Assembly (NCBI GenBank): GCA_036172245.1
Contig: JAYWIR010000042.1
Span: 186,001-250,000, forward strand
From: Raillietiella orientalis
Taxonomy: Eukaryota
Length of the DNA: 64,000 nt
Direction of reading: 5' to 3'
A model generated the notes under the pieces. It was given only the letters and a program-made list of their open reading frames with translations. It had not been told where the DNA came from and ran no database searches. Shown piece by piece: positions 5,728 to 32,349 of the stretch. The translations under genes and the position numbers were made by a program. Within the stretch, counting starts at the first letter, position 1; every line of letters begins with the position of its first letter.

Positions 5728-5980
5728 AGGAACTGTTTTTCACCCGCATTTTTTCCTCTCTTTTTTTTCCGGGTTTCCTCTTTTTCTTCGGGTCCCAAGG
5801 AGTGCTGCAGACTTGGGTCTCGCCTTCTTGGAGGGGGGTGTCCATGCCACCTGAGGGCGCGTGTGACTCTTCAAGTTAGGGGGTGATCCGTGAATCCAGG
5901 ATGGGCTCCGGAGGAAGAATTCCTTTCCTATTACCCTTGGAAGGGCCCTCCGAGGGGAACCATCCCTTCTTTATTCCCCC
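5728..5980 (+). repeat. Dispersed repeat family, 5' module (T-tract...GGGTCCCAAG...GAGGGYGCGTGTGACTCTT)
   Basis: Direct nucleotide similarity to 7857-8117 and 8767-8857, and to 50250-50380 and 62630-62770. Confidence 0.8.
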
Positions 5981-7856: not shown

Positions 7857-8455
7857 GCTGTTTTCTTCCGGATTTTTTTTTTTTTTCCGGGTTTCCTCTT
7901 TTTCTTCGGGTCCCAAGAGTACTTCAGACTCGGATCTCGCCTTCTTGGGGGCGGGGGCACGAAGCTTTTTAACGCTGTCCATGCCACCTGAGGGTGCGTG
8001 TGACTCTTTAAGTTGGGGGATGAGCCATGAATCCAGGGAGGGCTCCGGAGGAAGGATTCCTTTCCTCTTACCCTTGGAAGGGCCCCCGAGAGGAAACATC
8101 CCTTCCTTATTCCCTCCAAGGTGTCCCCTGCAGGGGATGGCACTCCCCCCCACCTCTTTTTCTCCGAAGGAAACCCGGAAGGGAACCGCTCCTCGTTTCC
8201 TTCCCTCTGAAGGATTGCTCCTGGAAGGGAGCAGCGCGCTCCTTCGCAGCTTGAAGAAGACCCACCCCGAGGGGAGTTTCAGCCCTCTTCATGGCAAGCG
8301 ATGAGAAAAAGAAGAAATTGGAAGGGGGAGGGTCTTTCTCCTCCCCCTTCGAGGTGGGAGGTGGCTTCGTTTGCGCAGCCGGAGGGCAACCCCGAAGGGT
8401 TCCTTCATTCCCGGAAGGACTCCGGAGGGTCGAATTCCGATCCCGACTACTCGGC
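7857..8455 (+). repeat. Longer copy of the same dispersed repeat module
   Basis: Shares ATGCCACCTGAGGGYGCGTGTGACTCTT with 5844, and ATTCCYGGRAGGACYCCGGAGGRTC with ~50683 and ~63875. Confidence 0.8.
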
Positions 8456-8589: not shown

Positions 8590-9146
8590 GGATCCCAGGA
8601 GGGTGGCTGCTGCTGCTGAACCCCTGATGCGCGTTGCCGACTACCGTGAAGGCTGCTGGAGGTGGCGCGGCGAGGGAAGAGCTTCTGCGTTGCCACTAGG
8701 CGTCGCCGAGGGCGGGAGAGCCGTGACTCGAGGGAGGCTTCGGGCTTTGGTGCTCTGGAACTCCTGGGAACTGTTTTCCACCCGGATTTTTTCCTCTTTT
8801 TTTTTTTTTCGGATTTCCTCTTTTTCTTCGGGTCCCAAGGAGTGCTGCAGACTCGGGAGCTGCTCCGCCGCCGCGTGCTGGATGTTTTTTTGGCTTTTCA
8901 GGCGGGGGGAGAGAGAGGGGGGGGCATTTTCCGTGCTCGGTCGAGGGAGGGAGCGGAGGAGAAGCGTTCCTCCCGGAGGCGTTCGCACCGCTGGACGGGA
9001 GGACGAAAAGGGGTGGAGCAGCTCCCCTCGGGTTTCTCTTCCCGCAGGCGTCAGGTTTCCCTGTGCGAGCCCGCGAAGGCAGCGCCACCGTTCACTGGCG
9101 GGGGAGGCAGCAGAAGCAGCGGTGGAGCAGTGGAGACGGCGGCGGC

Positions 9147-12100
9147 ATGGCGCTCGTCCTCAAAGTCGCTCTCCTTCTTTTCCTCCTCCTCTCCCGAGGG
9201 CCGGCCCCCCTCCCCGGATGCGCCCGGGCGGCCCCCCGCGCGGAGCGGCTCCTGCCCCCGTGGTTCGACAAGGCCAAGTTCGGCATCCTCGTCAGCTGGG
9301 GGCTGCCGTCCGTGATCGGCTTCACGCCATTCTCGGAGAACCTCTGGGTGGCGATGAGAGGTAAGCGAGAGGAGTAGGTCGCGCTCCCTCCTGCCTGGCG
9401 GGAAGGTCTCCCATCTCCCTGGAGGGCCCCGAGGCCCTCTACGTTCTCGGAGCACTCTGGGCCCTGCCTCCTCCCCCCCGTGGCAGACGGCCTGTTGGCG
9501 GACTCGCCCGTGCCCGTCGCCAGTGCCCACCCATGGCTGTCCCCCGGCCAGCGAACGGACCACCACCCCCGAGGGAAGTGGGGGGGGGGAGGAAGGCCGA
9601 GAGCTGCGTCCCGAATCCCCACGCGCTCCCGAGGTGCGCTGCTCTGACGACCGCGCGCCACGGTCCCTTGACGCGCGTCCACCGGGACGCCAGCGCGAAG
9701 CGGAATTTCCAGCCAGCATCCCTGGGGAATTTGCGCTTCTCCGGACGCGGAGGAGAGGGGATCCTCGGGCAAAGGAGGAGATCTGTTCGGGGGCACCCGG
9801 TTGTCTCCCTGCCCCAAGGGCTCGATGAAACGCGGGATCTGCGGGAATCCCGGGGCGGCTTCCAAGGCTCTCCAGAAATTCCGCGAGACCTCGCAAGAGC
9901 CCGCACGCGGAAGATTTTTTCGGAGGAGCTGTCCAGGCAACCTGGATCCGACGAGGCAGATGCGGGGATCCACCCTACCGTCTGCCTGCGGTGGCACTCA
10001 GCTGACAAGACGGAATTCATCCTCGCAAGCCCCAGGGGCAGAGGCTGGGACCTTCCCCCTCCTTTCGACCGCTTCCGGGCGGACGGACATCCCGCCGTCT
10101 CCTCCTCTCGGACAGCACCGGCCGCCGCCTCTCCTCGTCATCCACAGCAACCCTTCTTTCCGGTAACTGACAGCGTGCATGAGACGGTCAGCAGTGACGA
10201 GGGGGGAGGGAGGGGACATTTTCCGTCTATCCGCAGTAGCAGCCGCAGCAGCACCTGGTGGTGATCCTGCTGCCCCCGTGAGGAGGCTCTTAGGAAACGA
10301 CAGTGGGCCAAGGAAGTGGAGCAGAGTCCCCCGACTGGCTTCCGCGTTGCTTTCCCCTCCGGGCGCTCGTCCGCTGCTCCCGACCTACTGGTTGCGCGCG
10401 CCTCTTCTCGGCTTGCGGAAGCTGCAGAAGGCAGTGATCCCCACCCTCCCCCAGCGGGATGCACTCCAACCCCATGGCCGCGGACGTGTCGCAAGCTGTT
10501 GCTGCCTCCGCGAGGGGCCGTCTGCTTCCCACAGCACCCTGACCCTGGTACCACGTGTGTGTGTGTGGTGGTGAGGGGTATTCGGAGAAGAGAGCAGCAG
10601 GCTGAAGGGGTCACCCCAGAGCGACCACCCGGAGACACCTCATGGCTGCTGGCGCGCGCAGCCACGAGGTGGAACAAGGCACCTGGGACGAACCCCCCCT
10701 CCTCTGAGGAGGGGAAGCAACGCTGGTAACGAGTCTACCCCGGCGGGAGGTCGAGTCGGGCTGCTGCCTCGACACGGGGACTCGCTCGAGCCGAGGTGCG
10801 CGGGCGGAGGTGGAGGATGCAATCCCTCCTGCCGGCGCAGGAGACACGTTCCCTTCCCTCCCGGGCCTGCCTCGATCTGCGTTCCAGAAGCCAGGAACAG
10901 AGAACTCCTCATCTTCCTGAAGGAGAACCGCCGTCCGATGCTGGGCTACCCAGGGCTGTCGCAGGAATTCAAGGCTCAGGGCTTCAACTCGGACCAGTGG
11001 GCGGCCTCCCTGCGGAGAGCGGGAGCCAGGTGGGTGCCCCGGACCCGGGGTGTGTGCGTGTGCGAGCTCGGAAGGAGGCACTGAAGGAGCAGCTCTGCGC
11101 GCCAGGAACTCGAGGACAGGGAAGCTCCAGCCTCCTGGGTCCTCAATCGCCGTCGCGGTTCCACGGCTGTTCAGGTTCGCCCTGCGGGTTCCGTCCCGAC
11201 GACGTTTGGCCTCGAGGGGGTCGAAGGGGTGGAGGCATTCTTCCACCCCCGACAGCCCTTGGCATGTGTCTACGCGCGCGCGCGTGCTGCTCGTTGGGGA
11301 AGACGGACGGAACTTCCTGCGCGCTCCCGGGACAGGAGAAGGTGGCGACGCTTTCTTGCTATCGAGGCCGCGGCCCCCGCTCCCTTGCCCCTCGAGTAGG
11401 CCGGAGAGCTCCTGCTTCGGTGCTGCCGGCGGTAGGGTTGTGCAGAGCGAACGCCGGCCGGTAGGCGCGCCAGCTGGAAGGGCCGTCCGCGCGGCTACCG
11501 TTGCTCCCGGGCGCCTCCCGCTCGCACGTCGGGACTTTCTCTTCTCCCGCCGCAGGTACGTCCTGATGACTGTCAAGTACCACGATGGATTCTGCCTGTG
11601 GGACTCGCCTTGGTGCGGTTACTGGAGCTCCGCGCGCTCCGGACCGAAGAGGGACCTCGCCAGTAAGGCGGCAGGAAGGCGTAGGGGAGGGGAGGGGGGG
11701 GGGAATAAGGGGGAAACCCGGAGGCCCGAAAGAGCTGCTCTTCCTCCAGAAGAGCTGGCGACGTCCTTGAGGAAGATGGGAGGAATACGGTTTGGAATCC
11801 ACTACACTCTCAAGGAGTGGTACCACCCTCTCTTCCTGTCCGACTCCGGGACGTCCTGGAAGAGCAGGCAGTTCGTCACCGAGAAGGTCATCCCTGAGCT
11901 CAAGGATCTGGTGAGAGATTCTTCCGCTCCCGAGGGGTACTTCCGGGTGGGAAGGGAGCGGTCGCCTGCCGAGCGCCCCGAGACCACTGCGGCGGACCGG
12001 GAGTCTTGGAAGGGAATGGGAAGGGGAGGGAGGAAGGTGGAGGAAGTCCCTGCCATCCGGACCAGCTGCGGAAGTGAGCGCCTCCTTCTGCCACCCCGCG

Positions 12101-13404
12101 GGCGACCTACCTTCCTCGGAGGGGCCGTGTTGGACATGGGACGAGGGTGATCCTAGAGGCGTTCGGAAACCTCCACGCGAGTGGCCTTCCTGCTCTACTC
12201 AGAATTCCTTCCTCGAGGATGTGGACGTCGAGGACACCATCCGCCAGCGTCCTCCTCCCCCTCCCTTCCTCCTCCTCCTCCTCCCGCTTCGGCGCGCGCT
12301 GGTCTGCCGTTTTTTTCCACCCCAAGGCGGTAGCTCTCGCGGGGTCACCCCCGCTTTAGGGCGCGCGCGCGCGCCAAAGTCTCTCCATGCTGCAGGTGTC
12401 GAGACTACACCCGGAAGTGATCTGGTCGGAGGGCAACCAGGGCCCCACGGCGAACTACTGGGGCACGGAGGAGATTCTGGACTGGCTGTTCGAGGCGAGC
12501 CCCGTCAGGAGGTCCGTGGTGGTCAACGACCAGCTCGACCCTCAGTGGGCCTGCTCCCGCGTCAGCACCTTCTACACCTCGTGCGAGACGCCAACGACAG
12601 GTCGGTGGGCCCTCCTCTCCTCTCTTCAGAACCCTCCGGGAACTCCCCCCCTTCCTCCTCCTCCTGCCTCGCGTCCTCAGGGCGGCTTCCGAGTCACAAG
12701 TACGAGAAGCGCATGACGATCGACCGTCGGGCGATGGGGAGCCGCAAGAGCGTGATGGTGGACGATGTCCGCTCCCTAGGAGAGATCCTGGAGAGCTTCG
12801 TGGATACCGTCAGCAAGGGAGGTGAGGGATGCAGCCAACTTTCCTCCGCACCTCCTTCTCCTCCTCAGGGAACTTCCTGCTGGCCATCAGCCCCTCCTCC
12901 GACGGGTTCATCCAGCCGCTGTACGGCGAGCTCCTCCAAAGTCTGGGCGACTGGCTGCGGGACAACGGGGAGGCCATCTACGACACCAGTCCGTGGAGCT
13001 GTCAGGAGAGCAAAGTCTCTGGAGTCTGGTGAGGTTCTCTGGAGAGGGTCGCGCGCAGCCTCCGGCTCGCCCCGCAGGTACACCAAGAAAGACTATCCCA
13101 GAAAGATCGTGTACGCCTTCGTCGGCAAGCACAACGTCGGAGAGGTGTACGTGGAGTGCGTGCGCCCCACCAGAAGTACCAGGGCCACGCTCCTCGGTCA
13201 CAAGGGACTCAACGTCTCGGTGAGCCTGCTTTCCCCGTAGCCCCACTGCTGTCATCTCACCCCTCCCCTCCCCTACATCACGCATACTCCTCCCCCTTTT
13301 AGTGGTACTGGCACACTCCCTCGCTCCTGCGCCTGTTCGTGCCTCAGAGGCTGCTTTACGGTTTCGACAGCATGTGGGTGGTCCGCTTCACCGACCTTTA
13401 CTGA
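9147..13404 (+). CDS. FUCA: Alpha-L-fucosidase-like protein (GH29), copy 1; 9 exons, 457 aa, signal peptide, degenerate active site
   Basis: Exons 9147-9360, 10888-11029, 11556-11662, 11750-11910, 12396-12600, 12681-12821, 12869-13028, 13078-13219, 13303-13404. All introns are GT-AG, phases join in frame (1374 nt) and the CDS ends in TGA. Motifs: PPWFDKAKFG..WG, GARYVLMTVKYHDGF, GPKRDL, EWYHP, PEVIWSEG, SPV...VVVND, TVSKGGNFLL, WLRDNGEAIY. Confidence 0.92.
9600..10700 (+). mobile_element. Decayed LINE reverse-transcriptase fragment in intron 1 of fucosidase copy 1
   Basis: Ordered degenerate RT motifs in the 9533-10264 and 10179-10574 frames: GPLTRVHRD (~RPLTLLN.D), GQRRRSVRG (~Q.GFV.GR), GFQGS (~DF.KAF), PRGRGWDLPPPF (~RG.RQG.PLSP.LF), VTDS (~YADD), RLLG. 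Confidence 0.4.
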
Positions 13405-13499
13405 ACCGACCCTTTCCACCTACGCAGGGGGGGGATGGGAACCGTCCGAAGAAGGGACCGCTCTGCTACGAGAGAAGAAGTTTGTTTCATCCTCCTGGA

Positions 13500-14350
13500 G
13501 TGTCGTCTCATAGGAAGGGCGTGGGGGAGGGGGAGAAAAGGGGAGGGACAGCAGCAGAGACTTGCACCCTTTCGAGGACGCCTTGCAAGCGCGCGGTTCG
13601 AGGGCGAAATCGATGACCGGGGTGACCAGCGAGGAGTTTACATTCTTTGCGGCGCGCGCCGGACTGCCAGCCCATCGTCTCTGTAGCTCCCGGCCGCAAC
13701 TTCTTCCCCCCGTGTGGCGGAGCAGGGGATAGCAGCAGCTCCTCGTCTCCCCAACCCTTGAGCCTTCTTGAGGGATCTTCAGGAGGCCCCGGCCTGGGGC
13801 GTGCTGTCCCTTTGTCCAGAGGCCACTTCCGGCCCCGCATCTCCTGCCCACCAGGAGAGCAGGAGGACTCCTTCGTTTTCTTCCAGTCCGTGTAGCTCCG
13901 GCCGCCTCTGGCCTGCTCTTGGAAGGACCGCATTGCGCCCTTCTTGCCCCACCGCCCTCCTTGCGCCAGCTTCCAGGAAGTTTGCTCTCCCCAGGGCACC
14001 TTCTTCTTCGCGATTTTCCCCGTCACTCTCGATCGAGCGCCGAAAGATACTCCTGGCCGAGAGCCATTCTGGCCGAAGGAACGGAAACGAAAGTGGAAGC
14101 TAGGCGCTCGGCTCGCTCGAGACGAACAGGGAGGAGATGACCTTGCAAGGGGTGCGGGCGCCCGGCAGAGAAAACGGCTCGCACCGAAACCGGGAGAGCG
14201 GAGAACAGCGGAGACGGCACGGGGCAGAGCGGTTGCCGTGGAACCGGAGGCCCGGAAGAGGAGAAAGCCTTGGAAGCCCAGACGAAGGGAAGGCGCAAAA
14301 GAAACTCCGGCCTCGGATCGTTTAGATCGGCTGCCGCTTTCGCTTGTCAG
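13500..14350 (-). mobile_element. Decayed L1/Tx1-like ORF2 fragment (region between endonuclease and RT)
   Basis: FQEQARGGRSYTDWKKTKESS resembles the L1-clade E..A.GA..RS...W...GE motif; degenerate. Confidence 0.3.
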
Positions 14351-14599
14351 CACACGAAACGGCAATGCGATTTACCCGGGCGACCGCTCCTCAGCCTGGG
14401 GTTGCGAAGGAGAAGTGGGTGGGCGACGGTGAGTTTGGTCATGTGTTGGACATTCAGGAGGAATTTCCGCCCGCACTACAAGCGTCCGCGAGTCTCGGGA
14501 GATCAGCGAAGCAGCCGGTTGCGCTTGCCGTTTTTTGCTGCTTACGGTGCCTTTGGCTGCCTCCGCGTTTGCTCCAGTCGGTGCTCCGACTCTCCTCTG

Positions 14600-17450
14600 C
14601 CTTCCCCGAGCACGTCGGCTGAGATGCTGGCACGACGGCGACCGCTGGCCGAGAAAATGGCAAGCGGCGCCGCTGCCGCTTCCCCTATAATGCGATTGCT
14701 GCGTGATCTCGCCAGCATTCCTGACCTCGAAACCCATCCGTTTCTTGCATCTGGAAAACCCTCTCGGAAGCCACCGGACGGAAAATCTGTGTTCGGGGGG
14801 TTCTCGTCAGAATTCGCCCGCCTTAGCTACGACTCCACGTTTCCGAGAGAGGCTCCCACGAGTTGCCATGTGTGCAACTGCACTGTTGCCCAACGAACGC
14901 GAAGGCGTGTCCGTTCCAGGCCGCATGCAACAGGCGAGAAAGACAGGCGGCAGTGGGCCTGCCCTAGGTCTTCAGTCTGCGCGACAACCGGAGAGCAAGG
15001 GAATGACGCTTCCAGTGTTTGGGAGGTTGCCGGCACCGTGCTTCTGGAGAACGTGCGCGAGTTCGGGGAGTCGGCGAAGAGAGCCTGTGCCTCGCTCATC
15101 CATCCGTTCGGCAGTAACCCAATCACCCAGGAAAATTCTAAAGGGGCGCCGCACGTTCCCCTTTCCCATGATGGTAAGCACACCAAATTCGACGCAAAGG
15201 GGAAGGAAGAAGGAAGCGGGGAGGCGGAGGGCCGATGAGTGTAGATGCAATGCGACCGTTCCTCTTCCTGTTCAACGGTCAGCCACCGCCATCCCGACCA
15301 GGCACGTTCTGAGAGATCTCGGATTCCGCCTCCCCGCAGACAGGGAATGATTCATCTTTCAAGGAGAGCAAGCCACAAGATCACGAGAGGCCGGTTTCTC
15401 GTCTGCACGAACACCCGGAAGTCAGTGAAGATCTTTTTTCCCCTCCTTCAGGTCCAAACTTCGAAGGCACGGCCGATCCAAAATGCTCAAGTGACCGATG
15501 GATCAGTAGATGGAATGCGACAATACATCTATTCGGTTCCAAACACGTGCTAGCCATCCCACCACGAATTTCTGGACAACTTCATCTACCATCATCCCTC
15601 ACGTTCTTTTACCCATGTTACTACCAAAGGGGCTCCAGTGTCCCTACTCCTCTTCATTCCGCTCCTAGAAAGCGCAAGGCTCGTAATTCAGTGTCACGTC
15701 CGCTACGATTTACAGCCAAAAACATCACCACCGGCAGTGTCCCTATCACCAGACTTTCGAATATTTTCATCAGCCTCGTTCCTTGGATCTTCATTATGAT
15801 TCTAGAATGAACCATAGCCCTCATCCAAGCTTACATCTTTTGTCACGTTCACTTCCTTATGCACGGAAAAACAGCCACAATAACAACCTACCCACCAGCC
15901 AGTTTATCTCCACTCTCTCAGACTTGGTCTGTGAAGGCGGACCCAACACTCTCACCTCCCTCTCACTCGAATCCATAACTCTTTCCCTAATCTGCTTTGT
16001 ACATAATGAACATACCTCCCTCATGTTCTCTCTGTGTTGCCTGCATCCACAATCACAAGTGGATTTCTCTGTGGTAGAGGCATGAAGCGAGATTCTTCAT
16101 GCGGGAGAGATGTTTCCAATAAAAATAATAGGCACATTTAAATTCTGAATAATCATATTCATCCCTTCAGAAATCTTTGTATTTTTCTCCTGATCATTCT
16201 TCCGTGCCAGATTGAGAGCCATTCCACAATTCAGCTTTTCTTCACCTCCGTCTAACATCTCTATGCTGCACACTCTTCAACCTTGCCCATCTTTTGACAT
16301 CAGGCATCTCAGTTACAAGGACGCATCATTCCCTTTTGACCAAAAAAATTTCCCCGTGCCCTAATTTATCTACTTTTTCCTATTACCATCGGCCCCCTGT
16401 TTATCACAATCCAAATCATAGAATGTTTTATACTTAGGTTCTTTACTACAGATTTCATGTTTGGTTCCACATTCTTTATTGGTACCACCATTTACCTCAC
16501 TTCCTCATCATTGCAAATTCTTGCACTCTCTCGCACTCGTGTCCAACACCTTTCCTTTGAGCTTCCTTCATGATACTGATATTTCGTGGGCGCTGTATTC
16601 CTCTTCCTATTGTGCTTCTGGGTATACCCTTCCAGTTGCTATGCAACGCACACGTTGGAAGCAACTCTCAGCTGGACGGAACGCCTCTGTGATGCCCTTC
16701 CAGGTTCAGTTGCTGCCCGCATCTGGTGCGGACGGGAACGAGGAAGAGAAGCATGGGGCTGGTGGACACTCCTAGGAGGCTGTGTTTGCAGAGATTTTGC
16801 TTCGATTTCCCGCTTCTGTGTACCATGTGGTGTGAGAGTGTCTTCTCGTGCAGGTGTACACGAGCGGGACGCGCGCGTTTGTATTTTCAACAGCCAAAAG
16901 CCACCGAGCGGGACATTCCCGGCAACTCCCGAAGACGCCGCTTCGAGAATGGCGTTTCAGCTGCCGTGGTTCTCGATTTTGACTGCTGAGCCGCATGAGC
17001 CATCAGTAATGAAAGTCACGTGGCTTATTTTCACGACGTCCATGTTTTTCTGTGTGAATCAGCAATTGGTTGCTAAAACAGGGTTTCCCCGTGATTTCTG
17101 ACCGAAGGGAACTCTTTGAAAGCCCCAGCGGTATCTCTAACGACCTTCGGTCTAAACGTGATGCCGCATGCGTTTGTCATTTGGGACTGCGATCACTTGG
17201 TGTTGCTGCCTTCTTGGAAGGAGGCAGGGGGAAAAAATTCCGACGTATGAAAAGGAAAGACGCCTGTTGAAAATCCCGCGCGATGAGCATCCTGATAGAA
17301 CATCTGTAGCACTGCTAGGACAATCGGCGGGACAGGCGAAGAGGACTCTCGAAAAGATTGAATTCCAACGATCCGTTACGCAATCCATGAAGCGACGTCT
17401 TCCTCGCGTGCCGACTGCACAGGCTTCCAATAAATACAATTTGGACAGCT
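14600..17450 (+). mobile_element. Decayed CRE-like (restriction-like endonuclease) non-LTR retrotransposon
   Basis: ASGAAAASP..RLLRDL, GGSR...LLPNEREGVSVPG (~L.P.QFGVGVPG), SSGSRRREPV (~GVQQGDPL), LRDLGFRL, then AVVLDF and LGQSAGQAKRTLEKIEFQRSV resembling the RLE C-terminus. Many stops and frameshifts. Confidence 0.35.
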
Positions 17451-19449
17451 TTGATCCCCTTATTTAATATGATGTATTGAATCCAAGACTTCACTTCGTA
17501 CCGGGACTTCTGACTCACTGATGGAATACCAATACGCCTGCACTCTGCATTCGGGGAGCATTTGACTTTCTTTGCCTCGCTACTCTGCAGTTCCACCTTA
17601 CGTCGAATGAAAAAAAGTGCAGATTGACGTAAGTAGCATTAGCTGCCGTCAACACCAGAGCATTTCTTGTTTGGTGGGGCAAAGAGAGAGAGAGAGATGG
17701 AGGGGGGGGAACTGGACTAAGGCAAAATATTAATGCGATGCTTTTTTACCTGAGAGGCATTTTTTTTATTACGAGGCGTAAAAATACTACGCTGTAGCGC
17801 ACACCGTTTGCAGAACAGGAAGAAGAGAAGAAGGGGGTGGGAATGGCGTGTCGAAACCTTCCGAACACCGCCGCCATCAGAGCAATGGCGCCATCGTCAA
17901 CGGATTGTTCGTGGAGCTGTGCGGGCGCGAAGCTGATCCTTCCCTCCCTATATCGAAGATCACTCTTTGACCTCCGAAGAGGATTGCGAACGTCGTTCCG
18001 TGGGCACTTTTGGAGGCAATCGGTTTTCCGAAAGCAGTTTTCCCGTTACGCGTAGGTTCAAACCCGCTGAACGTGCTGAAGAAAGAGCCGCCTCGGCACA
18101 CAGCTGGGCTCTGCAAGTTACGAGGTCTGAAGTCACTTAACGAGGGGGAGCCGGACTACCCGAGGAATTTTATGCCATCCCGTGAAAGGCATGGGGCACT
18201 GGTTCCAGGGCGTTTCCAGGGCCTTGAGTGTTCCGCCCAGAAAGGAACCCAGAAAGTCGGTTAAACGACACAGAAGCCTTGACACTGGGCCCACGCGCGA
18301 AGCACGCAAATGGGGGAGATCCCGCGTCTAGCATTCCTGATGACGGCAAAGGGCATGGGGATGACAGGTTCGGTTTGCAAGCGCCTTCGGTGCGGCATTC
18401 TGGAAACGCGGGCTGCATGCGGCATCTGCGAGCCTCCCTTCATCCCCCCCTCCCCTCCCCCGATAGCGCTAGGATTGCGTCAAATAGAAAGGAATAGTTT
18501 GTCGACGGTACTCATCTTCGAACAAAAAAAAAAGAAGGAAAAAGGAAGCAGGGAGTAAGCTCAGCGACACGTGCGTAAAGGAGGATCACACCACGTCGGA
18601 ATAACTCCCTCCTTATCCAGGAATTCGCCTTTCGCAGTTCGTCGCTTTCCTCCTCGAAAGTGATGTTTTCGGCGCGGATGCTCCGCGCCGGAATCCTCGA
18701 GACCCGTGCGGTTGCAAAGTCCAGAAGCAGCTATCTCGACTGCAAAGATGACGGCTCCACGAGGGGAGGAAGGGGAACACGCGAAGAGGGATGCCGCCGC
18801 AGCCGAATCACTGCGAGATGGCCGTCGAGGGCCACCCCCCCTTCAAGATGGCGGCGGCAGTTCTCGCCGCCGCCATCTTGAAGGGGTCTCCCGATTGTTA
18901 TCGCGGGGTCGAGGCGGCGGCGCGGTACACGCAACAAAGTCCGGTCGGGGCTCACAGCGCATGCGGGAAACGTGAGCGCGCTCTAGTGCGATTTTCCGCC
19001 GCGCGGCGCGCTTCCCGCAAAAAGAGCGGTGTGTGCAGCATGGAGAGTATGCGTGCGTAGCTCGTGTTGAATTTGTGAGAATCTAATCTTTGGCAGACAT
19101 GGCTTGTGTTTGAATTCACAGTGTGTGATATGTAACAGGTTTATTAGCTGGAACATACATTTGTTGTTCGACTGATTCCACAATGAGTGAAGCAATAAAA
19201 ATGGTACGTATCGCCGAACTCTCCCTTCAATCTTAATGAGCGAGCGCTGTCTGCGGCACCGGTAAATCGTAAGATTTCTTCATGAATGAGAATGTGCCGA
19301 GTTAGGGAAGCTGTGCGTAAGTTGGATTGAAGTAAGAGCGGAAGGGAGTGCGCTCTAAAGCCCATCATTGGGTGGGGTGAATAATTTATTCACGGTGATA
19401 GGTGAGTGGAATGTTAAGGGAGTGGGAAGAAGGGAGGAGGGAGGGAGGT

Positions 19450-19510
19450 GACGACGACGACTACTACTACTACTACTACTACTACTGCTACTCTACTACT
19501 ACTACTACTT
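19450..19510. repeat. (GAC)n(TAC)n trinucleotide microsatellite
   Basis: Directly visible. Confidence 0.95.
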
Positions 19511-19747
19511 GTTGCATCAGCCGTCTCATTGGAAAAAAGAGAAAGGGGGAAAAAGAAAGGCGCTTCCTTATGCCACACGACTTGCTGAAAGGGAACAGCA
19601 ACCGGTCTCGCAAAGATCATCTTGCTGATCATGCAGAAATCGAACTTGTTAAGCATTTGGTTTCCTGTATGCAGCGAACATTCTTTTTTTTTCTCTCTTT
19701 TTTTCCAAACAACTTCCATAGGGCCAACCATTGTTGGCCGAGCCGCC

Positions 19748-21686
19748 ATGTTATGGCGGAAAGCATGCGTCTCCATGATGCCCTCGACCCCCACGGTAAA
19801 AAAAAAAGATCCATGGAACGTGACTTTCGTGTCTCAAGTGTTCCGCCGGCAATGGACGTGTCTGTTGCTGTTCCAGTTTAAGGAAGAAAAAATGATGATT
19901 ATCCTTAGAGACCCGTTGATCCGGATGAGGAGGAAGAAGAACCTGAAGTGAAATTGCGCCCTTTAAAAAAGGAAAAGGGTGGCCTTCGTAGGAAACGCAT
20001 CATTGTGCTGTGCATCAGCACATTGCTTGGGGCTGTGCTTGTTTTAACCGGTGCCACACTATTTTCGATCTTTTCGAAAATCATCGACGACAAGATCAGA
20101 GACGTAAGTTGGCCGATAGCTCACTCCAATTTCGAACCCATCAAGTAGCAGCTGCCGTTGAAGCAGGATAGCCAAGCGCTGGAAACATTTCTAAATCCGC
20201 CGGGATTCATTTATTTCAACATTTACCTTTTCAACATTACGAACTATGCTGACATCGTGACCAATGGATCAAAACCGATCGTACAAGAAGTCGGACCGTA
20301 CGTTTACAGGTAAGTCGCCCGCACAACTGCAAAATAGAACGGTGAACGGTTAAGAATTTGCTTGTTAACAGAGAAGTGTTCGCAAAGGAATTTCTAAGTG
20401 ACCCATCAAATTCTTTGGACTTCACGTACTCCTTGAAGAAAACGTACTTTTTTGACCAAGAGAAATCGGCTCCCTTCACCGAAGATGACCTCATCTGGAC
20501 CGCCAACTTGCCAGTGTTGGTGAGTGTCGTTAGTCGTTCGAAAGCGTTTGGGGTTTATCGGTGCGTTCGGTCCAGGGCATGATCCAATACTACAAGCATA
20601 TGAACAAGTTACTCAAGAGGACCATGAACAGGATGTTGAAAAAATACACTCAGGGGGTCTTCATAAACCGCACCGCCGGCCAGCTGGCGTTCAAGGGAAG
20701 CTACGAAGAGCTGATAGATAAGTTGTCCTCCGCTCTCTTCGTTGAGATCCTCCCGAATAACACGTTCGGTTTCTTCTACGGGGTAATGCGCTTTTCCTGT
20801 GAGAAGTGGTAACCGAGTTCACAGAAAAACGGCACCACACAAGGAAATTTCACCGTGAAGAGGGGGACAGACGACATCAACGAACTGGGCAGGTTGCTCG
20901 CCTTTGACAACCGCACCGAGACGAACACCTGGTCCGAGGCCTCCGCCTGCACACTCATGAACGGCACCGACGGCACCATCTTCCCGCCCTTCTTGTCCAC
21001 TAGCGAACGTCTGTATGTGTATTCGCCGGACTTATGCCGCTCGGTGTTCATGGAATGGAAGACGTCCGAGACGGTGCAAGGGATACGCGGAGAGCGCTTC
21101 CAGCTGTCTCCCGCGGTGTTGGACACTCCCGAGAAGAACCCGGAGCAGGAGTGCTTCTGCGTGAAGGCGAACGAGAACTGCTCCAACCCTTCGGGCGTGT
21201 TCAGCATGAAGCCGTGCTCTGACAGAGACCTTTTCTTCTCCATGCCCCACTTCTATGGCGGTGACAACTCGCTCGTTCTTGGCGTCGAGGGCATGAAGCC
21301 CAAGGCGAGCGACCACCTCACATTCGTGGTGCTGGAGAAGGTAAGCGGGAGCCTCGTACTTTCCTCAGCTCCTGGATCGTCCCGTTTTCTTTTCCCAGAA
21401 ATCCAGCGTGCTCCTCAGGGCGGCCAAGCGCATCCAAGTTAGCATACATTTGAGTCAGTTAGAAGACTTCGACATTCTGGAACAGGTGCCTGACGTGTAC
21501 CTGCCGCTGTTCTGGATCTCCGAGGAGGTGGAACTCCCTCAGTGGGTGGTGAACAAGATCCACGACAAGCTGATCCGCCCGCAGCAGCTGGCCGAAGTGG
21601 TCTGCTGGCTGCTGGTAGCGGTGGGCGTCGTACTCATCCTGGCGTCCCTCGGCGTGTACTTCTACTGGAAGAAGCGCAAAGAGTGA
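19748..21686 (+). CDS. SCARB: CD36/scavenger receptor class B family membrane protein (SCARB/LIMP-2-like), ~520 aa, two TM helices
   Basis: Exons 19748-19795 (tentative, gccgccATG), 19909-20103, 20149-20309, 20372-20519, 20576-20782, 20825-21340, 21399-21686. Introns after the first are 42-62 nt, GT-AG. Motifs: N-terminal TM, YLFNITN..GSKPIVQEVGPYVYRE, FGFFYGKNGT, NGTDGTIFPP, YSPDLCRS, CFC...C..SGVF...C, FFSMPHFY, AAKRIQ, YLPLFW, C-terminal TM, KKRKE-stop. Orthology within the family is not resolved. Confidence 0.92.
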
Positions 21687-21830
21687 ACGGAGCGGAAACG
21701 TCCGTGGTGACGCCACGCGGCTGTGATATCATCCTCCTTTCGGACGCTTTTGGTCCCGGCGTCCTCTTTCCCCCCTTACCTTTTCCCTCGCCTACCTTCC
21801 TCCTACCTAGTCCCTTGTTCCTGTTGATTC

Positions 21831-21836
21831 AATAAA
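21831..21836 (+). promoter_or_regulatory. Probable polyadenylation signal of the SCARB gene
   Basis: AATAAA 145 nt after the stop codon. Confidence 0.55.
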
Positions 21837-22552
21837 GCGGAAAAAAAAGTGGGACACGTGGATGGAGGCTTGCGACCGGCGTCCCGACAGAAGCGCCAGG
21901 GAAAGGAAGGTTCCGTGCCGGGAAGGGGACCTCCCTCGTGCCGCGCGGTGGCCGCTGCCGTGCCCTCTTCGTTAGCAGCGACGGCAGGCGGCTCGTCCCC
22001 TCACTGCGGGAGATCCCGCTGCCCGAGACGTAACCTCGAGTGGTGGGACGCCCACAGGGGCGAAGGGCGAGGAGGGAGGATGCGAATGTCCCGCGAAGGC
22101 CCTTCCTCCACTACCAGATGCGGCACGCCGACTCCTCCTCAGTGCAGGGGAGGTCGCGATGGGTGCGCGCGCCTGTGGTTTCAGGAGGGTCGGCTGCCGT
22201 CTCCGCTGACCACGACGTGCCGCCACCCAGCAACCCGCATCTTTACCACCTTCCCTTGGGTATGCACTCGTCCGGCGGTGGGTCTCCACTCCTCGCCCTC
22301 CGAGGCTCGGCAGGCAGCGGTCACTCGTTGCGTCTACCCGCGGTCCCTGTCTGGGTCCTTCCGGAAGAGGACCGAGGCCTTCCGCCGCGACTCCACGACG
22401 GCAACGTGCCCGATCAGAGATCGCACAGCGGCTCTCGAATGTCAGAACGCGAAAGACACGTCGCGGGGGAGGGGCGTCACGCGGACAGAGGACGGCGCTC
22501 GTGACGCAGCAGGAGAGCTCGTCACCACGATCTCTGCTGCAGACGGGTGACC

Positions 22553-25500
22553 ATGAACCTCTGGCAGCGGGAGGCGCCGCCGTCGCTGCTGCTGCTGCTG
22601 CTGCTGTCGTCCTTCTGCCCCTGCACGGTCTGCGCCGATCCCTGGGATCCAGTGGACTCGAGGCCCTTGCCGAAGTGGTACGACGAGGCCAAGTTCGGCG
22701 TCCTCCTCAACTGGGGGGTCTTCAGCGTGCCGGCGAGAGGGAAGCCTTCGGAGGAATTCTGGCTGCAGTGGGAAGGTAAGGCCGGAGAGGGAGGGACGAA
22801 GAGGGCGCGTAATCACCCACGGCCGTTCTCTGACCCGCACGCACGCGTCTCGGCTGCTTCTTGCGCGAAAGGCGAGAGTAGAGAGATGGCCGTACACTCC
22901 TTGCGCGCGAAGCCGGGTGACGTGAACGCGCATTGGCGACTGTCCGCCTTCTCGCCCGGAGCGAGGAGAGCCTAAAAAGGCGAAGGGAAGGGCAGTGAGC
23001 AAGCGCGGCTCTCCCGCGAACAGGAGATCTCTCATCCCCTCTCCCTCCCTCCCAGGCCACAAGAAGATGAAGTCGCACCAGGAGTTCATCGCCAGACACT
23101 ACGGGACCGATTTCGCCTACATGGACTTCGCCAATGAGTTCTGGGCGGAGTTCTTCAACCCCGATCAGTGGATGCAGATGATCAAGGACTCCGGGGCGAG
23201 GTGGGTGGCGGCCGCGAGGAGCAGCTGCGGCTGTAGGTCTCTTTCCTCCTCCTCCTCCTTCCCGCTCGCGCGTGTCCCGCGCTGCGGCGCTCGCGGGAAG
23301 CGCGAGAGGGAGAGAAAGACGAGGAGAAGGCGAGAGGAGGACGTGGGGTGGAATAGGGTGGACGCGCGCGCGCGCGCGCGTGGACATCCGCCCACTCGCC
23401 GTCGAGCGATAAAAAACGCTCCCTGTCCCGCTCGCTCTGTGACTACTCTGAGCAGCCCGCGTCCGATTTCGGCGGCCGTTGATTGGATCCCGCGGAGGAC
23501 GTGCTCCTCCGGGACTCGCCCAGACCTGATGAGCTGAGCGATAGCATCGTGGGCCACCACGCTGTCGCGCGCCCGATGCGCGGCGTCTTCCGCGAGGGGA
23601 GGTCGTTGCAGTGACGGACCGATTGGTTGCTCCATGTCTCCGAAGTCCTCGCGGCGCCATCGCCTCCTCATGGAACCCCCTCCCCCCTTACACACACACA
23701 CACGCACACATACAAATACGCAACCACGTTCGCGCGCGAGCGCATTCTTTTCTTCTTTTTCATCACTCCCAACTAAGCGGAAGAAAATCACGTGCGTTCC
23801 TGCGAGAGTACGAACGTCCACCTGTGGAAAGCATACCGCCACCAAAGCCCCGCACGCGGGGAAAGGGAGGGCGTTTTCCCGCGTCTTCCGAGAGACACGC
23901 AGGCGCTGCTGCATCCCCCGCATGTACCTGGCAGCGGCGCCATCGATCGCCGGGCCTCACGTTTTCACGCTTTCCGCGGCTAGCTTCCGCTCGGCTGGAG
24001 ATCCCCCTCGTGGACGTGTTAGAGGCCATCGGGGGTAGATGACTGCCCCCGGCGCTTTCCTCGCAGTTTCCAACCATCGGCGCCGCAGCACCAAGGATCA
24101 GCTCCCCTTGGAGAAGGACACTTCACCATCCGCACCGGATTGTCAGCGACGGAATTTTCGTCGGTTCCCTTCCTAGTCGAGAGCTATGGAGTCTTTGGAC
24201 AGCCGCACGGAAAAGGGGGCCAGCAATGACGTGTTTCGTGCGGAAAAGGGTGCAAGCAACAGGACATGGGGTGGCATTTTCGAGACCAGTGTTGTCGAGT
24301 CTGGAGTCTCCAAACTGCACGCGAAAGCGCTTCGTGTGCGACGCTTTGGACCAGATTAAGTCCGAGGACAGTTGTGATGATACACCTCGCGCAGCTTAAA
24401 AACGTCGCCCATGCTGTTATCTTTGCATTGCCTCGTTGGTCGCCATCTGGACGTCACGCCCCGAGGCCAGACTGGCGGCGTCACATCGTTCACCCTGTGT
24501 CATCGGCACATCACATCACTGTACTCCAATTGCACACATCACTGCTTACGAACCCGTGGACCGCGGAGATTTTCAGATCACTGTGCCTGAAACACGCGGA
24601 CGATTGAGTGTTTGCAGATGCACGAGTCACTCTCTTTGAAAGCTTGCGAGTCGTCGCGACTGACGACAAAGTGACGAAGTGACTGCGTGTGAGGACACAT
24701 CAAGTGCAGGGGCGTCACTGCACGGTATGCAGACCGCCAACTGTTCCGCACGCGCTATTCGAGTGGACTGACTTTGTGGCGTGGATGAATGCCCTCTACG
24801 CGCGGTGGCGCGCGGCATGGCCGCGCAGACTGTGCGGATAGAACCTGCCCGCGGCGGCTTCGCCCCGGGCCGCCAAGATCAAGTCCTGGAGCGAACCGAC
24901 CAACGGCGAGACGGGCTCTTCCTCACCCTCGATCAACGACCGAGCAAGGTCGGGACCCTAATCAAGTTTTCCGACCCGGAACGAGTGCACGGACGTCCCT
25001 CCGGCCAAGGGAAAAGCCCTAAAGGAGATGAGGGCTGGAAGAGGCGCCTTGGGGTGCTCGGCAGCTCACAAGGAAGCAAGCAGTGGCGGTAGCTTGCCGG
25101 TGGGGTTCTTCCTCTGGATAAATGCGAGGGAGGACAGGACATCGGTCTCCTACCCCACCACTCCTCTGGCGTGACCTTAGCATGCGTGCGCGCACGGTTT
25201 TTTTTCCTTCCCCTTTTCGGCCAGGAGCGGTCACTTTCGCCGCGGGGGGACGACCGAGGCGCAGCAGGAAGGGAGGGGAAGCGAAGGGAGAAGGACTCGA
25301 AGGAAAGGTGCCGCTTTTTCCCCTTTCACGCAGATACGTCATGGTCACCGCCAAGCAGCCGGACGGATTCTGCATGTGGTGGTCCAAATACTGCAACACC
25401 TGGAGCTCCTTAGAGAGGGGAATGATGAGGGACCTTGTCGGTGAGGAGAGGTGGCCGTTGGGGCTGCATCCCTGCGCACGGGGATGCTTTCCAGAGATGT

Positions 25501-28500
25501 TGTCCGTCAGTGCTACGAACAAGAATCTCAAGTTTGGCATCCGCTACGTCGCTCACGAGTGGTTCGATCACACGTACCTCTCCAAGGATCTGGCGGCCAC
25601 CTACTTCGTCGAAGCGAGGGTCCGACGACAGGTGATGGAGCTGGTGAGGAGGGAAAAGGGGGAAAAGGCAGCTCGGCCGCTGGCGAGGAGTCCCCGGGCT
25701 GTGGGGCTGCCGACGGCCACCCTCGGCTTTCCCGCTGCTCCCGAGAGCCAGAAGGCGAGGAGGGTCACCTCACTCGCCGCCCACTCACCTACCGCCGGTC
25801 GCGGCGGAGGCGCTGCTACCTCGCCGCCAAAGTTCCTCCCGCTGTTCCCGCGGAAGTGACCGATCGAAACTCAAAGGGAACCCCCTCAGGGTGTTTCATT
25901 CCGCCACTATGTGCTGTTCCCAGAGGACGAGACGATCCGCCTACCCCCCAACGGCGCGCTTCGGCATGGGGGGAGTCCTGTTCGAAATCCCTAGCGATCA
26001 AAATCCCAAAAGATCCCCCAAAATAGACATGCACTCTCATTCTACATAGATTAACATACAAGTCTATTTTAATATGCATAATTATTCAAATTTATTAAAT
26101 ACATGTTATCACATCCTAATACTATTGGAACAGACATTTTGTATATTCATTCATTATTATTTATGCCATCCAGTCCTAGTAAGCATCTGTTCCAATAATA
26201 TTACTCTTAATACTATGTATGTTGATATATATGAATAACTATATACAGTAAAATGAGTCTGTATATTAATGTATGTGGAATAAGCATATATATATAATTT
26301 TTTAATCTCCATAATATATATTGATTTATATGTTTATATATAAATATATGTGTTAACATAAATAAAAAACATTTATTTATTAAGTATAACCTTTGCAATA
26401 TACATTAATCCATAAATTAATCTTTATATAAATATGTATATCGATGCATATAACAAGCATATATATTTTTGATAATATTTAATTCTTTATGAATACACTT
26501 CCAGTAATATTCCTGCAAATAACATGAATGTAATAGATATGAATAACTATGTATAGTAAAATAAATTTGTATATCAACCTACGTAGCGTGTATAAGCGCA
26601 CGTGCCCACGTCTTCGATCTTTCGGGATCCCCGGCACAGGAAGGTGAAACGCGAGGGGGCGGTGGCTTCAGTGAGCTGGGAACTCTGGAAGGAGAAAAGG
26701 AGACGGACAACCCCTCACTCTCCCACTCCTCCCATCCTTTTCCAACAACTGGGTGACCCCGTGACCCCGTCCTTTGCCGCCGTCCGCAGCTCCGCGCCGT
26801 TTCGGCTCCCGAGCGAAGCTTCCCGTGGCTTCCCGGGGAAACGCCCGAAACCGCGAACGCTGCAGGAACCCGCAAGCCCTACGAGACGCATTCCCCGGTC
26901 CTCGATCCTGGAGCCTCCTGCTATCGGAGGAACTCCCAGCCTACGACTCCGACCGACGGAGACGATCGGCAGTTCGAACCCATGGGATAGAAAGGGAGCG
27001 GTAGAGGGTGGCCTTCTTTTCGGAAATGACCTCAAGGTCGGGGAGAAGAATAAGAGAGTCTGCCGTAATTCCTGCAGCCCCCGCGGCCTCAGGAGGAGGT
27101 TCTTTGGGCGCCGCCTTGGGACCTCGCCGGAGGAGGGCATCTGCCCGCTACCTCGGAAGCTGACCCGTCCTTTGCTTCCTCCTCGTCCCTTCGGCGTGTT
27201 TCAGGTGCAGAGGTATGGACCCGACCTCTTCTACTTCGACGGCACTGCGAAGTCGTCGTCCTTCTGGAACTCCTCATCGATCGCCCAGTGGTTCGGAAGC
27301 AGTGGGGCTCCTGCAAGCAACGCGGTGCTCTACGACCGCTGGGGTTCCAACACGCTCTGCAGGCATGGATCCATCTACACGTGTCCGAAAGCCGCCCAGA
27401 TGACCGGTAACCAAGGGGAACGGATGATCGACTGCCCCCTTTCCCTTCTTTCCCTCCCCCCGCGGAGGTCGGGACACCTTCTCGCTCTCCCCCTCGCGTG
27501 CCTCTCTGCACGTTCCGGCGAGGTGGATGGGCCCCTCTTCCCTCCGTCTCCCGGGGAGCGAGATGCCGGTTGGCATCAGAAAGAGAAGGAAAGGAAGGCG
27601 TGGAAAGTCCTAGGGGCGCCACCCGCAAGGAGGTTCCGACCAGATGCGGAAGCGAGTTCACGTCGCCGAAGCCCCGGGAAGAAACGGGAGGCGTCCAAGG
27701 TCTGCGCGCTGCTCGGTGGCCCACACAGGAAAAATTCCCTCTTCCGTCCGGGGACGAGAGCCAAGGACCACCGAAGGGAAGTCAGAAGCCAACGCTCGGG
27801 TCAGTGACCGGAAGCTCCTTGTCGATGACCTCCGCAAGGGAGGAAGCCTCGCGGTCTTAAGCTCCCTGGGCAGACCCTCTGACGGGAACGGCCCGCTGAG
27901 GGGAAGAGGAAGGGGAAGGTGGCAGGAAACCTTTGAACGGCTCCTATCCCTTCCTTTTTACCTCAGCTCGGGGATCCAAGCACAAGTGGGAGAAGACGAG
28001 ATGGATCGATCGCTTCTCGGGAGGGTACCGAAGGGACTGCACCTTTCGCGACATCCTCTCCGCCAAAGAGATCTTGATCGACCTGGTGAAGACAGTCAGC
28101 GATGGAGGTTTGGACCGGTTCCGATGTGCGGTGTCCCCGACCTCTTTCCAGGAAACTACGTCCTGAACATCGGACCCACCAAAGAAGGAACCATCCTTCC
28201 TATCTTCCAGGATCGGCTGAAGTCTCTAGGGAAGTGGCTGAGCATGAACTCCAGGGCGATATATGGATCCACCCCTTATAAGTGTTCCATGGATCCTTCC
28301 AACAACCGAGTGCTGTGAGTATCGGGTGCTCAGATGAACTGCACGGCCGCCGCCTGCAGGTACACCAGCAACAACAAGGACGTCTTCGCAGTGGTTATCG
28401 AGTGGCCTCGGAACGACCGGTTCAACCTCACGTGCATTACCGACAACGTGCAGTCCATCAAATTTTTGCCGAAACCGAGCGTCGAGGTCAAGGTAGTGTG

Positions 28501-28646
28501 ACCTCCCAGATGGCCCACCTCCTGGGTCGGCAGAGACGACGTCGTTCTAGTGGCGCAAGGTGAACAACCGCATCGAGGTCTCCATGCCGGCGAGGATGCA
28601 CCTAGAAGTCGACTACATCTGGGTTTTCGTTGTCACCAGAGCGTAG
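22553..28646 (+). CDS. FUCA: Alpha-L-fucosidase-like protein (GH29), copy 2; 9 exons, 452 aa, signal peptide, degenerate substrate pocket
   Basis: Exons 22553-22775, 23056-23200, 25334-25440, 25495-25643, 27205-27406, 27967-28107, 28152-28314, 28360-28492, 28551-28646. All GT-AG, in frame (1359 nt), with the same intron positions and phases as copy 1. Motifs: [86 protein letters not shown]. Confidence 0.93.
26030..26580. repeat. Very AT-rich island with an internal ~310-bp-period duplication, in intron 4 of fucosidase copy 2
   Basis: TTCCARTAATATT...ATGAATAACTATRTAYAGTAAAAT...TGTATAT occurs at ~26190-26268 and ~26499-26575; abrupt composition change from GC-rich flanks. Confidence 0.7.
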
Positions 28647-31600: not shown

Positions 31601-32349
31601 TGAGTAAATAACCTTCATGGTTAGAATACCGCAAATGACAGCGGTTATCTCAAGAAATGTAGATAAATAATAAAAAAATCATATTCAAAAAGATCGCATC
31701 TCTTATAACTGAAGAGTTTCCGAAGCATAAAATTTTATGTTGTTCTGTAGTAATTTTCACTGTACCCCAAAGAAAGAATGAAACAAAACATAATGTGCAT
31801 TCCAATTTTTAGACTCAGTTCCAGTATCAACTTTGAATAACGGTATATAAGTTATTTACTTTTAGGCTTCACCTTAGGTTGAACCATATTACGTGTTCAA
31901 TCCGTTGCAAATGGACGTAGAAATTAAATCTACTCATCTCAGTAAATCTCTTAAATGGATGATCACGAAGTTCTTGGATTTCAGAACGTTTAAATGGTAC
32001 TCGTTAACGTCGTAATTATAGCAGTTTTTGCACTACGGCTGAGTATGCTACGAGCATTCGAATTCACTTTAAAAGAGCGAAAACTTCGCGTTATTTCCTC
32101 TTACGTATTGGTATTAATCAAAATTATTTCATAAAGTTTCAAGGCAAAAAATATAATTTCGGTAATTTACAGTCGCCACTTATTTGATTGTAAAGCATGC
32201 TGGTAAAGGAATTCCATTTCATTTCTCCTAATCATTATTGCTTGTAACTGGAAACAAGAAATCAAACATTGGTGTTTTTTTTTTTCTCTTACCATAACGA
32301 TCCTTGTAGAATTCATGACAATACAAAATTACGTGCTAATTCAGTAAAG

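Follow-up and report, generated by a model that had tools for sequence, protein, structure and literature searches.

How can a gene for an animal α-L-fucosidase keep its reading frame, its introns and its scaffold and yet lose most of the residues with which the enzyme grips fucose? Two such genes lie in a stretch of 64,000 nucleotides of Raillietiella orientalis (GenBank assembly GCA_036172245.1, 210 Mb; contig JAYWIR010000042.1, positions 186,001 to 250,000 of the forward strand). This whole stretch is called the window here and its contig C42, so that the window corresponds to C42:186001-250000; positions given without a contig are those of the window. The two genes, copy 1 and copy 2, encode strongly diverged members of the GH29 family. 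The reading that we prefer, with a probability of roughly 60%, is that both are retained secreted or lumenal pseudo-enzymes with a GH29 fold, which would bind another glycan or a protein and would not hydrolyse fucosides. That neither copy protein hydrolyses fucosides is, judging from their residues, very probable.

Both genes are intact, and their main parts are as follows.

9147..13404, plus strand: copy 1, degenerate GH29/FUCA gene, 457 amino acids, ATG at 9147, stop at 13404
9147-9360, 10888-11029, 11556-11662, 11750-11910, 12396-12600, 12681-12821, 12869-13028, 13078-13219, 13303-13404, plus strand: exons of copy 1
9147..9230, plus strand: putative signal peptide of copy 1, end approximate
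22553..28646, plus strand: copy 2, degenerate GH29/FUCA gene, 452 amino acids, ATG at 22553, stop at 28646
22553-22775, 23056-23200, 25334-25440, 25495-25643, 27205-27406, 27967-28107, 28152-28314, 28360-28492, 28551-28646, plus strand: exons of copy 2
22553..22636, plus strand: putative signal peptide of copy 2, end approximate

The nine exons of each gene splice without an internal stop, all introns (8/8 in each gene, 16/16 together) are GT-AG, and the eight intron positions and their phases (1,2,1,0,1,1,2,0) are the same in copy 1, copy 2 and the canonical FUCA gene of this genome. The two proteins share 140 of 441 aligned residues (31.7%). Each begins with a hydrophobic core, with Kyte-Doolittle peaks in a 9-residue window of 3.51 at residue 7 in copy 1 and 2.78 at residue 12 in copy 2, and all later 19-residue stretches stay at or below 1.32; the signal peptides assigned from this hydropathy are putative. 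In an exon-level Pfam search, four exon stretches of copy 1 and four of copy 2 match PF01120, and the spliced proteins align with an animal FUCA profile built from 81 sequences over about 420 residues (E 2.5e-120 in a range of 406-390 bits for copy 1, E 2.6e-125 for copy 2). The Pfam C-terminal domain PF16757 is weak in copy 2 (24.2 bits against a cut-off of 25.6) and without a match in copy 1, and the alignment of both copies with the animal FUCA profile runs on to the C-terminal end. The best solved-structure match for the exons tested from both copies is human FucA1 (PDB 7PLS). An earlier note on this DNA had claimed full reading frames, eight introns at identical positions, signal peptides, strong divergence between the copies and eight pairs of altered motifs. 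All of this is found, the signal peptides by hydropathy only and the named substitutions at the expected exons; the observation is real and no artefact, and the interpretation which that note gave to it is partly supported.

What has been lost is best seen in the fucose pocket, taken here as the 12 active-site residues of Table 10 in PMC11796335, with the catalytic pair D225/D276 from PMC9548408. In human numbering, O4 is contacted by H58 and H133, O2 by H134, O2/O3 by W71 and O3 by E70; Y177 is the platform, F56, W223 and W299 form the C6 pocket, and Arg259 belongs to the set as well. As references we used 81 of 120 retrieved fucosidases, 420-510 amino acids long, after exclusion of 39 fragments and fused models. 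At the 11 pocket positions tabulated, the canonical residue occurs in 76 to 81 of the 81 references, a conservation that is inflated at the nucleophile, the Arg and the acid/base because the references were retrieved with a canonical exon bearing these three sites. In copy 1 as in copy 2, nine of the 12 pocket residues are changed, compared with 31/108 and 31/106 of the other conserved columns, respectively (Fisher p 0.0024 and 0.0028). In a third degenerate copy of the same contig, copy 3, 6/12 pocket residues are changed, with the O3 Glu counted as kept in a hand-set register, compared with 32/106 conserved columns (Fisher p 0.14). At four pocket sites, the residue is lost in both copy 1 and copy 2 and retained in copy 3. 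In copies 1 and 2, loss is thus concentrated in the fucose pocket, and the two lost different parts of it.

The earlier note had named as a possible refutation that such substitutions be common in characterised GH29 enzymes. From 198 homologous domains, we surveyed the 103 that cover at least ten of the 12 sites, 95 being dropped for low coverage. All 12 residues are present in 87 of the 103, ten domains have one change, two have two and four have four, which is the maximum; these last four are all isoforms of one Plodia gene. Nine changes fall far outside this sample, and partial loss of the pocket does recur in other invertebrates. The claim that fucose-gripping residues were replaced while the scaffold was kept therefore stands, with nine of 12 against about 29% of other conserved positions, except that the change from E to D in KHHEG had been counted as damage: KHHDG is common among 31 database matches and occurs also in the fucosidase of T. 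maritima.

At the catalytic positions the two copies differ from each other.

12429..12431, plus strand: nucleophile position of copy 1, Asp changed conservatively to Glu220 (Asp in 81/81 references)
12582..12590, plus strand: acid/base loop of copy 1, Cys271-Glu272-Thr273, with Glu or Thr facing the catalytic Asp depending on the register
27238..27240, plus strand: nucleophile of copy 2, Asp220, kept (aligned with human FucA1 Asp225 in 7PLS)
27388..27390, plus strand: acid/base position of copy 2, Asp changed to Lys270 (next after the Pro aligned with human Glu275)

In copy 2 the changes, in human numbering, are H58 to Asn, H133 to Gln, H134 to Pro, W71 to Glu, Y177 to Arg, F56 to Leu, W223 to Tyr, W299 to Gly and D276 to Lys, and the O3 Glu (E70), the Asp nucleophile (D225) and the Arg (R259) are kept. 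The human D276N enzyme, altered at the position where copy 2 has Lys, is reported to have a kcat/KM 40-fold down on para-nitrophenyl-fucose and an activity below detection on a natural disaccharide (PMC9548408). The pocket of copy 2 has gained two basic residues, Arg175 and Lys270, in addition to Arg253, which it kept; as a guess, an anionic ligand would fit such a pocket. In copy 1, the changes are H58 to Ser, H133 to Tyr, W71 to Asn, Y177 to His, F56 to Leu, W299 to Met, R259 to Gln, D225 to Glu and D276 to Glu or Thr; O3 Glu64, O2 His128 and Trp218 of the C6 pocket (human E70, H134 and W223) are kept. The ambiguity at the acid/base is one of register. An ungapped alignment, anchored by FYT upstream and the phase-1 intron downstream, sets Glu272 opposite the catalytic Asp, whereas an alignment from Cys to Cys requires one insertion and one deletion and sets Thr there. 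Copy 1 could thus carry Glu at both catalytic positions (Glu220 and Glu272). The replacement of the acid/base region by CET in copy 1 and CPK in copy 2, as the earlier note had it, accordingly holds for copy 2 with its Lys and depends on the register for copy 1.

By sequence, both copies are members of GH29, and by their pocket residues they do not qualify as α-L-fucosidases (EC 3.2.1.51): the Asp nucleophile is kept by copy 2 only and the Asp acid/base by neither. Since nine pocket residues are lost, useful fucosidase activity seems improbable. The proposal that both proteins are catalytically dead non-fucosidases is well supported for copy 2, with Lys at the acid/base, and less so for copy 1, where a Glu/Glu pair may exist. 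With the O4 histidines and the C6 pocket gone, neither copy would bind fucose well; we infer from the roles of these residues in solved GH29 structures that fucose binding was lost in both. A role as fucose lectin or decoy, one of those suggested at first, is consequently unlikely for copies 1 and 2, which lack the two O4 His, the O2/O3 Trp and most of the C6 pocket (PMC11796335, Table 10).

Where these genes come from is indicated by the other family members that the genome holds. A search of the assembly with PF01120 gave 17 matches among 21 candidates and a louse fucosidase query 23 among 26, and both point to the same five loci, which are copies 1 and 2 and the following three.

C43:1757134-1764011, minus strand: canonical FUCA gene, 456 amino acids, same eight introns, all 12 pocket residues
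C42:139304-153937, plus strand: copy 3, third intact degenerate FUCA gene, 442 amino acids, same eight introns, ending about 41 kb upstream of copy 1
C31 ~562320-563130, minus strand: truncated intronless retrocopy of the canonical FUCA gene, 7 stops, 9 frameshifts

The genome therefore holds a canonical gene, three long-retained degenerate copies and a true pseudogene that serves as a control. The canonical protein has an identity of 36.5-38.4% with the three copies and of 55% (median) to 62% with fucosidases from other animals. Copy 3 has lost the nucleophile, the Arg and the acid/base loop and retains F, H, H, W, W and probably E; having kept most of the fucose-gripping residues, it would be the best candidate of the set for a fucose lectin. 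A TATA-like box lies about 100 bases upstream of its ATG. A weak match to exons 3-4 of copy 1 at C3:4571720-4571881, minus strand (E 0.074), is absent from the other family searches and is probably due to chance.

The copies originated by duplication. A quick tree of 35 proteins places the three copies together with the canonical gene in a single group (SH-aLRT 95), which lies among insect sequences; the branches measure 4.5-6.8 for the copies as compared to 0.5 for the canonical gene, i.e., 9-13 times as long. As a guard against long-branch joining, we also placed the copies one at a time into a set of 18 other proteins, where copy 1 joined the canonical gene at 99/97 and copy 2 at 88/89. Three cysteines, Cys135, Cys363 and Cys402, are common to the canonical gene and all three copies and are present in 0, 0 and 2 of the 81 references; together with the shared introns they support a lineage-specific duplication for all three copies, and they suggest lineage-specific disulfides that would still be maintained. 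The phylogeny with the other GH29 genes of this genome, called for in the earlier note, thus unites them with the canonical gene, and the term clade used there is apt within this genome only, no orthologue having been found elsewhere with queries of about 100 residues. These queries have a translated intron inside, so that distant orthologues could be missed: with exons 3-4 of copy 1, none of 304 candidates from a 90% protein set reached E <= 0.001, and the ESM Atlas gave no usable match; with exons 3-4 of copy 2, a search of 1.84 billion representatives gave 31 matches, the best of 49.9 bits, and none resembled copy 2 at the changed motifs. A bacterial origin or contamination is ruled out by the spliceosomal introns common to the canonical gene, and allelic or haplotype duplicates are ruled out by the identity of 27-32% among the copies. 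No block similarity between the copies remains at the DNA level.

If these genes no longer encode fucosidases, why are they still there? None of the three degenerate copies contains a stop or a frameshift, and 48/48 of their splice dinucleotides are preserved. Constraint on the scaffold is apparent in copy 1 from conserved columns changed in 32/109 cases versus variable columns changed in 139/164 (p 8e-21), and in every copy about 30% of the conserved columns are changed versus about 85% of the variable ones. Six positions mutated in human fucosidosis, G60, S63, S150, N329, G340 and L405, harm folding and not the active site (PMC9548408). Copy 2 retains all six, of which L405 is the least surely mapped, as well as the structural E289; copy 1 does so too, apart from one change of Leu to Val. 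At fourfold sites the GC content is 0.83 in copy 1 and 0.79 in copy 2, compared with 0.67 and 0.57 in their introns. A look-up of RNA runs for 9100-13500 listed none that holds this sequence, a result without bearing on expression.

The retrocopy on C31 provides the contrast: with 162 mismatches in 774 bases (21% divergence) it has accumulated seven in-register stops and nine frameshifting gaps. We also simulated neutral decay of 2000 genes by substitutions only and scored 11 pocket sites. Intact genes numbered 11/2000 at 5% divergence and 0/2000 at 20%, and the mean number of pocket changes was 1.3 at 5%, six or more changes requiring about 40%. Simulation and retrocopy together imply that the pocket was lost while the reading frame was still protected; because the retrocopy is wrecked at only 21% divergence, neutral decay of the intact copies is very unlikely. 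The marks of a processed or decaying pseudogene, namely stops, frameshifts, lost introns or lost splice sites, are absent from copies 1 and 2, and the C31 retrocopy has all of them. That these are retained genes and not decaying pseudogenes, as had been proposed, is thus upheld by intact frames and splice sites, by constraint on the scaffold and by a neutral control that fails.

We propose that an ancient lineage-specific duplication of this animal's own lysosomal α-L-fucosidase gene gave rise to both copies. As the canonical gene would have retained the housekeeping activity, the duplicates would have been freed, and selection would have kept their fold, disulfides, signal peptide and splicing and not the fucose pocket. 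The copies would then act as secreted or lumenal pseudo-enzymes with a ligand other than fucose, the nature of which is, like the tissue, a matter of guesswork.

Several points weigh against this interpretation. The reference conservation at the three catalytic-exon sites is inflated, as mentioned above. The 35-protein tree is the result of a quick search and has very long branches, and copy 3, placed alone, fell elsewhere, away from the canonical gene. The dN/dS check proposed in the earlier note gave a divided answer: a codon model yields an omega of 0.06-0.25, which is a single value from a saturated four-gene tree including the canonical branch, and the direct comparison of copies 1 and 2 gives nearly equal values, pN 0.49 and pS 0.53. 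Rates alone are therefore no proof of present-day constraint, and with synonymous sites saturated we take the pairwise dN/dS to be uninformative. A death of the genes within the last few percent of divergence may have left no trace. Moreover, both proteins may have kept enough for catalysis on another substrate, copy 1 with its O2 His, its O3 Glu and perhaps carboxylates at both catalytic positions, and copy 2 with its nucleophile, Arg and O3 Glu, and switches of GH29 specificity via the position of the O4 His are documented (PMC9774334).

These last residues lead to the strongest competing explanation: one copy or more, with copy 1 as the likeliest, would be a working glycosidase or transglycosidase that has turned to a new sugar. 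In copy 1, Glu would then have taken the place of both catalytic Asp, across a pocket widened by four changes (His to Ser, Trp to Asn, Trp to Met, Phe to Leu). We regard this explanation as unlikely, though well worth considering. In the ungapped register Glu220 and Glu272 would occupy the nucleophile and acid/base positions; His128, Glu64 and Trp218 are kept, and the losses of copy 1 cluster at O4 and C6, the positions at which switches to L-glucosides or L-galactosides occur (PMC9774334). Asn in place of the pocket Arg is tolerated in active enzymes, and most bacterial GH29 members use Glu as acid/base (PMC11796335). However, the Asp nucleophile is stated in PMC9548408 to be conserved across all GH29 and is present in 81/81 of our references, and Thr would stand at the acid/base of copy 1 if the loop disulfide sets the register, copy 2 having Lys there. 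Documented cases of such switches are the α-L-glucosidases ClAgl29A/B of Cecembia lonarensis and the exo-α-L-galactosidase BpGH29, in which specificity changed via the position of the O4 His and the C6 pocket (PMC9774334). These enzymes are bacterial, and according to the same source the O2 Trp and the pair of adjacent His are retained in them, residues that our copies have partly or wholly lost; the L-glucosidases retain both histidines of the KHH motif and the Trp, whereas copy 1 lost one His and the Trp. The parts of the GH29 literature examined describe no GH29 enzyme that uses a Glu/Glu pair for catalysis on a sugar other than fucose.

A further explanation concerns the neighbours of the FUCA copies, which are genes of the CD36 family.

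19852..21686, plus strand: CD36c, lying between copies 1 and 2, an intact gene for a CD36/scavenger receptor class B protein, about 506 amino acids, 7 exons, PF01130 at E 3.4e-56
L025:1565-3261, plus strand: CD36a, intact, between copy 3 and copy 1
L026:3600-5344, plus strand: CD36b, intact, between copy 3 and copy 1
C2 ~3099800-3101800: only other CD36 gene detected, the genome count being a lower bound

CD36c has an open spliced frame with GT-AG introns, its short first exon being a best guess. The order on C42, all on the plus strand within about 75 kb, is copy 3, CD36a, CD36b, copy 1, CD36c, copy 2, and three of the at least four CD36 genes detected genome-wide sit in this cluster. The copies and the interleaved receptors might form a functional module, in which pseudo-glycosidases would carry or escort the co-duplicated receptors or act as their ligands, gut and reproductive tissue being conceivable sites. 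A mammalian precedent for the escort of a glycosidase by a CD36-family protein is LIMP-2 with glucocerebrosidase. CD36a-c are all open and 33-37% identical, which suggests an age like that of the FUCA copies, and in the best four-taxon trees copies 1 and 2 pair up and so do CD36b and CD36c, the pattern predicted by a block duplication. Nevertheless, in four-taxon AU tests none of the six topologies was rejected (p 0.09-0.71), the gene order is not a regular repeat, and no CD36 match was found beside the canonical FUCA gene. Chance adjacency followed by block duplication accounts for this layout, and a functional link is possible as a guess; we consider the module improbable. In its boldest form, a co-duplicated module of three FUCA and three CD36 genes may have divided roles, with copy 3 as a dead fucose-binding lectin, copy 2 binding an anionic ligand in its basic pocket (Arg175, Arg253, Lys270) and copy 1 a Glu/Glu glycosidase for a sugar other than fucose. 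It appears doubtful that at least one of two things holds, either an enzyme working with a Glu nucleophile or a physical association with the CD36 proteins.

Least probable of all, the copies could be pseudogenes, recently inactivated or not expressed, or else fucosidases with a weak residual activity and no special role. In favour of this one may cite their extreme divergence, the near equality of pN and pS and the kept nucleophile and Arg of copy 2, but against it stand the intact state of all three copies with all their splice dinucleotides, the ruin of the retrocopy at 21% divergence and the excess of GC at fourfold sites over introns.

Some other features of the region may be recorded. 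Four CD36 genes, a lower bound, are few for an arthropod-like animal. CD36b and CD36c have in common an acidic-then-basic N-terminal tail, and CD36b is basic and fast-evolving. A recent inverted duplication of 875 bases (C42:179318-180192 and 183022-183896, 98.5% identical) concerns the 5' part of CD36b, and the duplicate is truncated. Intron 4 of copy 2 contains a strongly AT-rich block amid GC-rich DNA (window ~26040-26600), possibly an old insertion. The segment directly after copy 2, 30000-36000, is also AT-rich (GC 33-39%), with no Pfam match above the cut-off among the ORFs (open reading frames) scanned. A dispersed repeat family, 65-84% identical and probably an old transposon, occurs across the cluster, including the introns of copy 3 (window ~50200-51300 and 62600-63800; C42 133400-134600, 144600-145300, 149100-151900 and 184500-185200). 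Upstream of copy 1 lie three related elements of 100-260 bases that are 80-92% identical (window ~5720-5985, 7860-8120 and 8755-8860). The window has no tRNA, no Rfam match and no large tandem array. A Pfam scan of its 129 longer and 115 shorter filtered ORFs found only CD36 above the cut-off; R/P/G/S/A-rich ORFs were excluded beforehand, so that other genes may be missed.

Returning to the pseudo-enzyme interpretation, the copies may be compared with known systems. With canonical animal GH29A fucosidases, such as human FucA1 (7PLS) and the canonical FUCA gene, they have in common the fold-critical residues, the eight intron positions of the canonical gene and, as it seems, the two-domain layout; they differ from these in the nine of 12 pocket residues replaced in each copy, and they are 37-38% identical to the canonical gene. 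Pseudo-enzyme duplicates with a radically replaced active site are known from the GH18 chitinase-like proteins, another enzyme family, for which tissue and function are known. The GH18 chi-lectins retain sugar binding, whereas copies 1 and 2 lose the binding residues as well. Drosophila S-LAPs, too, are duplicates under purifying selection with radical active-site replacement, dead enzymes retained in sperm (PMC3078892); they belong to yet another enzyme family, and there tissue and function are known. Within the FUCA family, vertebrate FUCA2 is likewise a retained paralogue, described as without activity on common fucoside substrates; FUCA2 keeps the nucleophile, the acid/base and the structural Glu, whereas the pockets of our copies are dismantled and their duplication is a separate one (PMC12427801).

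Among invertebrates, the Plodia interpunctella protein XP_053601604.1 and its isoforms, the Logan fragment P0139 and Armadillidium RXG56058.1 have pocket residues replaced, and the Plodia and Armadillidium proteins have Lys at the acid/base as in copy 2. The Plodia protein has 4/12 changes versus nine in our copies, falls outside their group in trees and seems to be an independent case, known from automatic annotation only; an ESM Atlas search with it gave ordinary FUCA clusters only. P0157 (from Plodia), P0139 and P0126 are apparently independent FUCA-like proteins with pocket changes, Asp to Lys at the acid/base among them, that are annotated as fucosidases. A family-wide survey of GH29 stresses that pocket residues are conserved and that duplications are frequent (PMC6718869). 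The sperm of Drosophila and of mammals carry fucosidases, and sperm-surface fucosidases have been proposed to bind egg coats (PMC4554920); together with the S-LAPs of sperm, this offers by analogy a lead, and only that, to a reproductive role of the copies. In the literature searched, with its limited coverage, we found no description of active-site-degenerate animal GH29 paralogues or of a FUCA-CD36 cluster.

Pseudo-enzyme duplicates are already a known kind, to which copies 1 and 2 add a variant, copy 1 with a chance of new chemistry that can be tested; should copy 1 use a Glu nucleophile to cleave some other sugar, this would break a rule stated for all GH29. So far the case comes from one genome only. 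Automatic labels as α-L-fucosidase overcount the activity in invertebrates, as the Plodia protein exemplifies. Animal GH29 fucosidases have been regarded as enzymes with one purpose and a pocket that hardly varies, whereas here three copies each dismantle a different part of it. They form a compact natural series in which the function of a GH29 fold without fucose hydrolysis can be studied, a question that arises as well for FUCA2 and for the fucosidases of the sperm surface.

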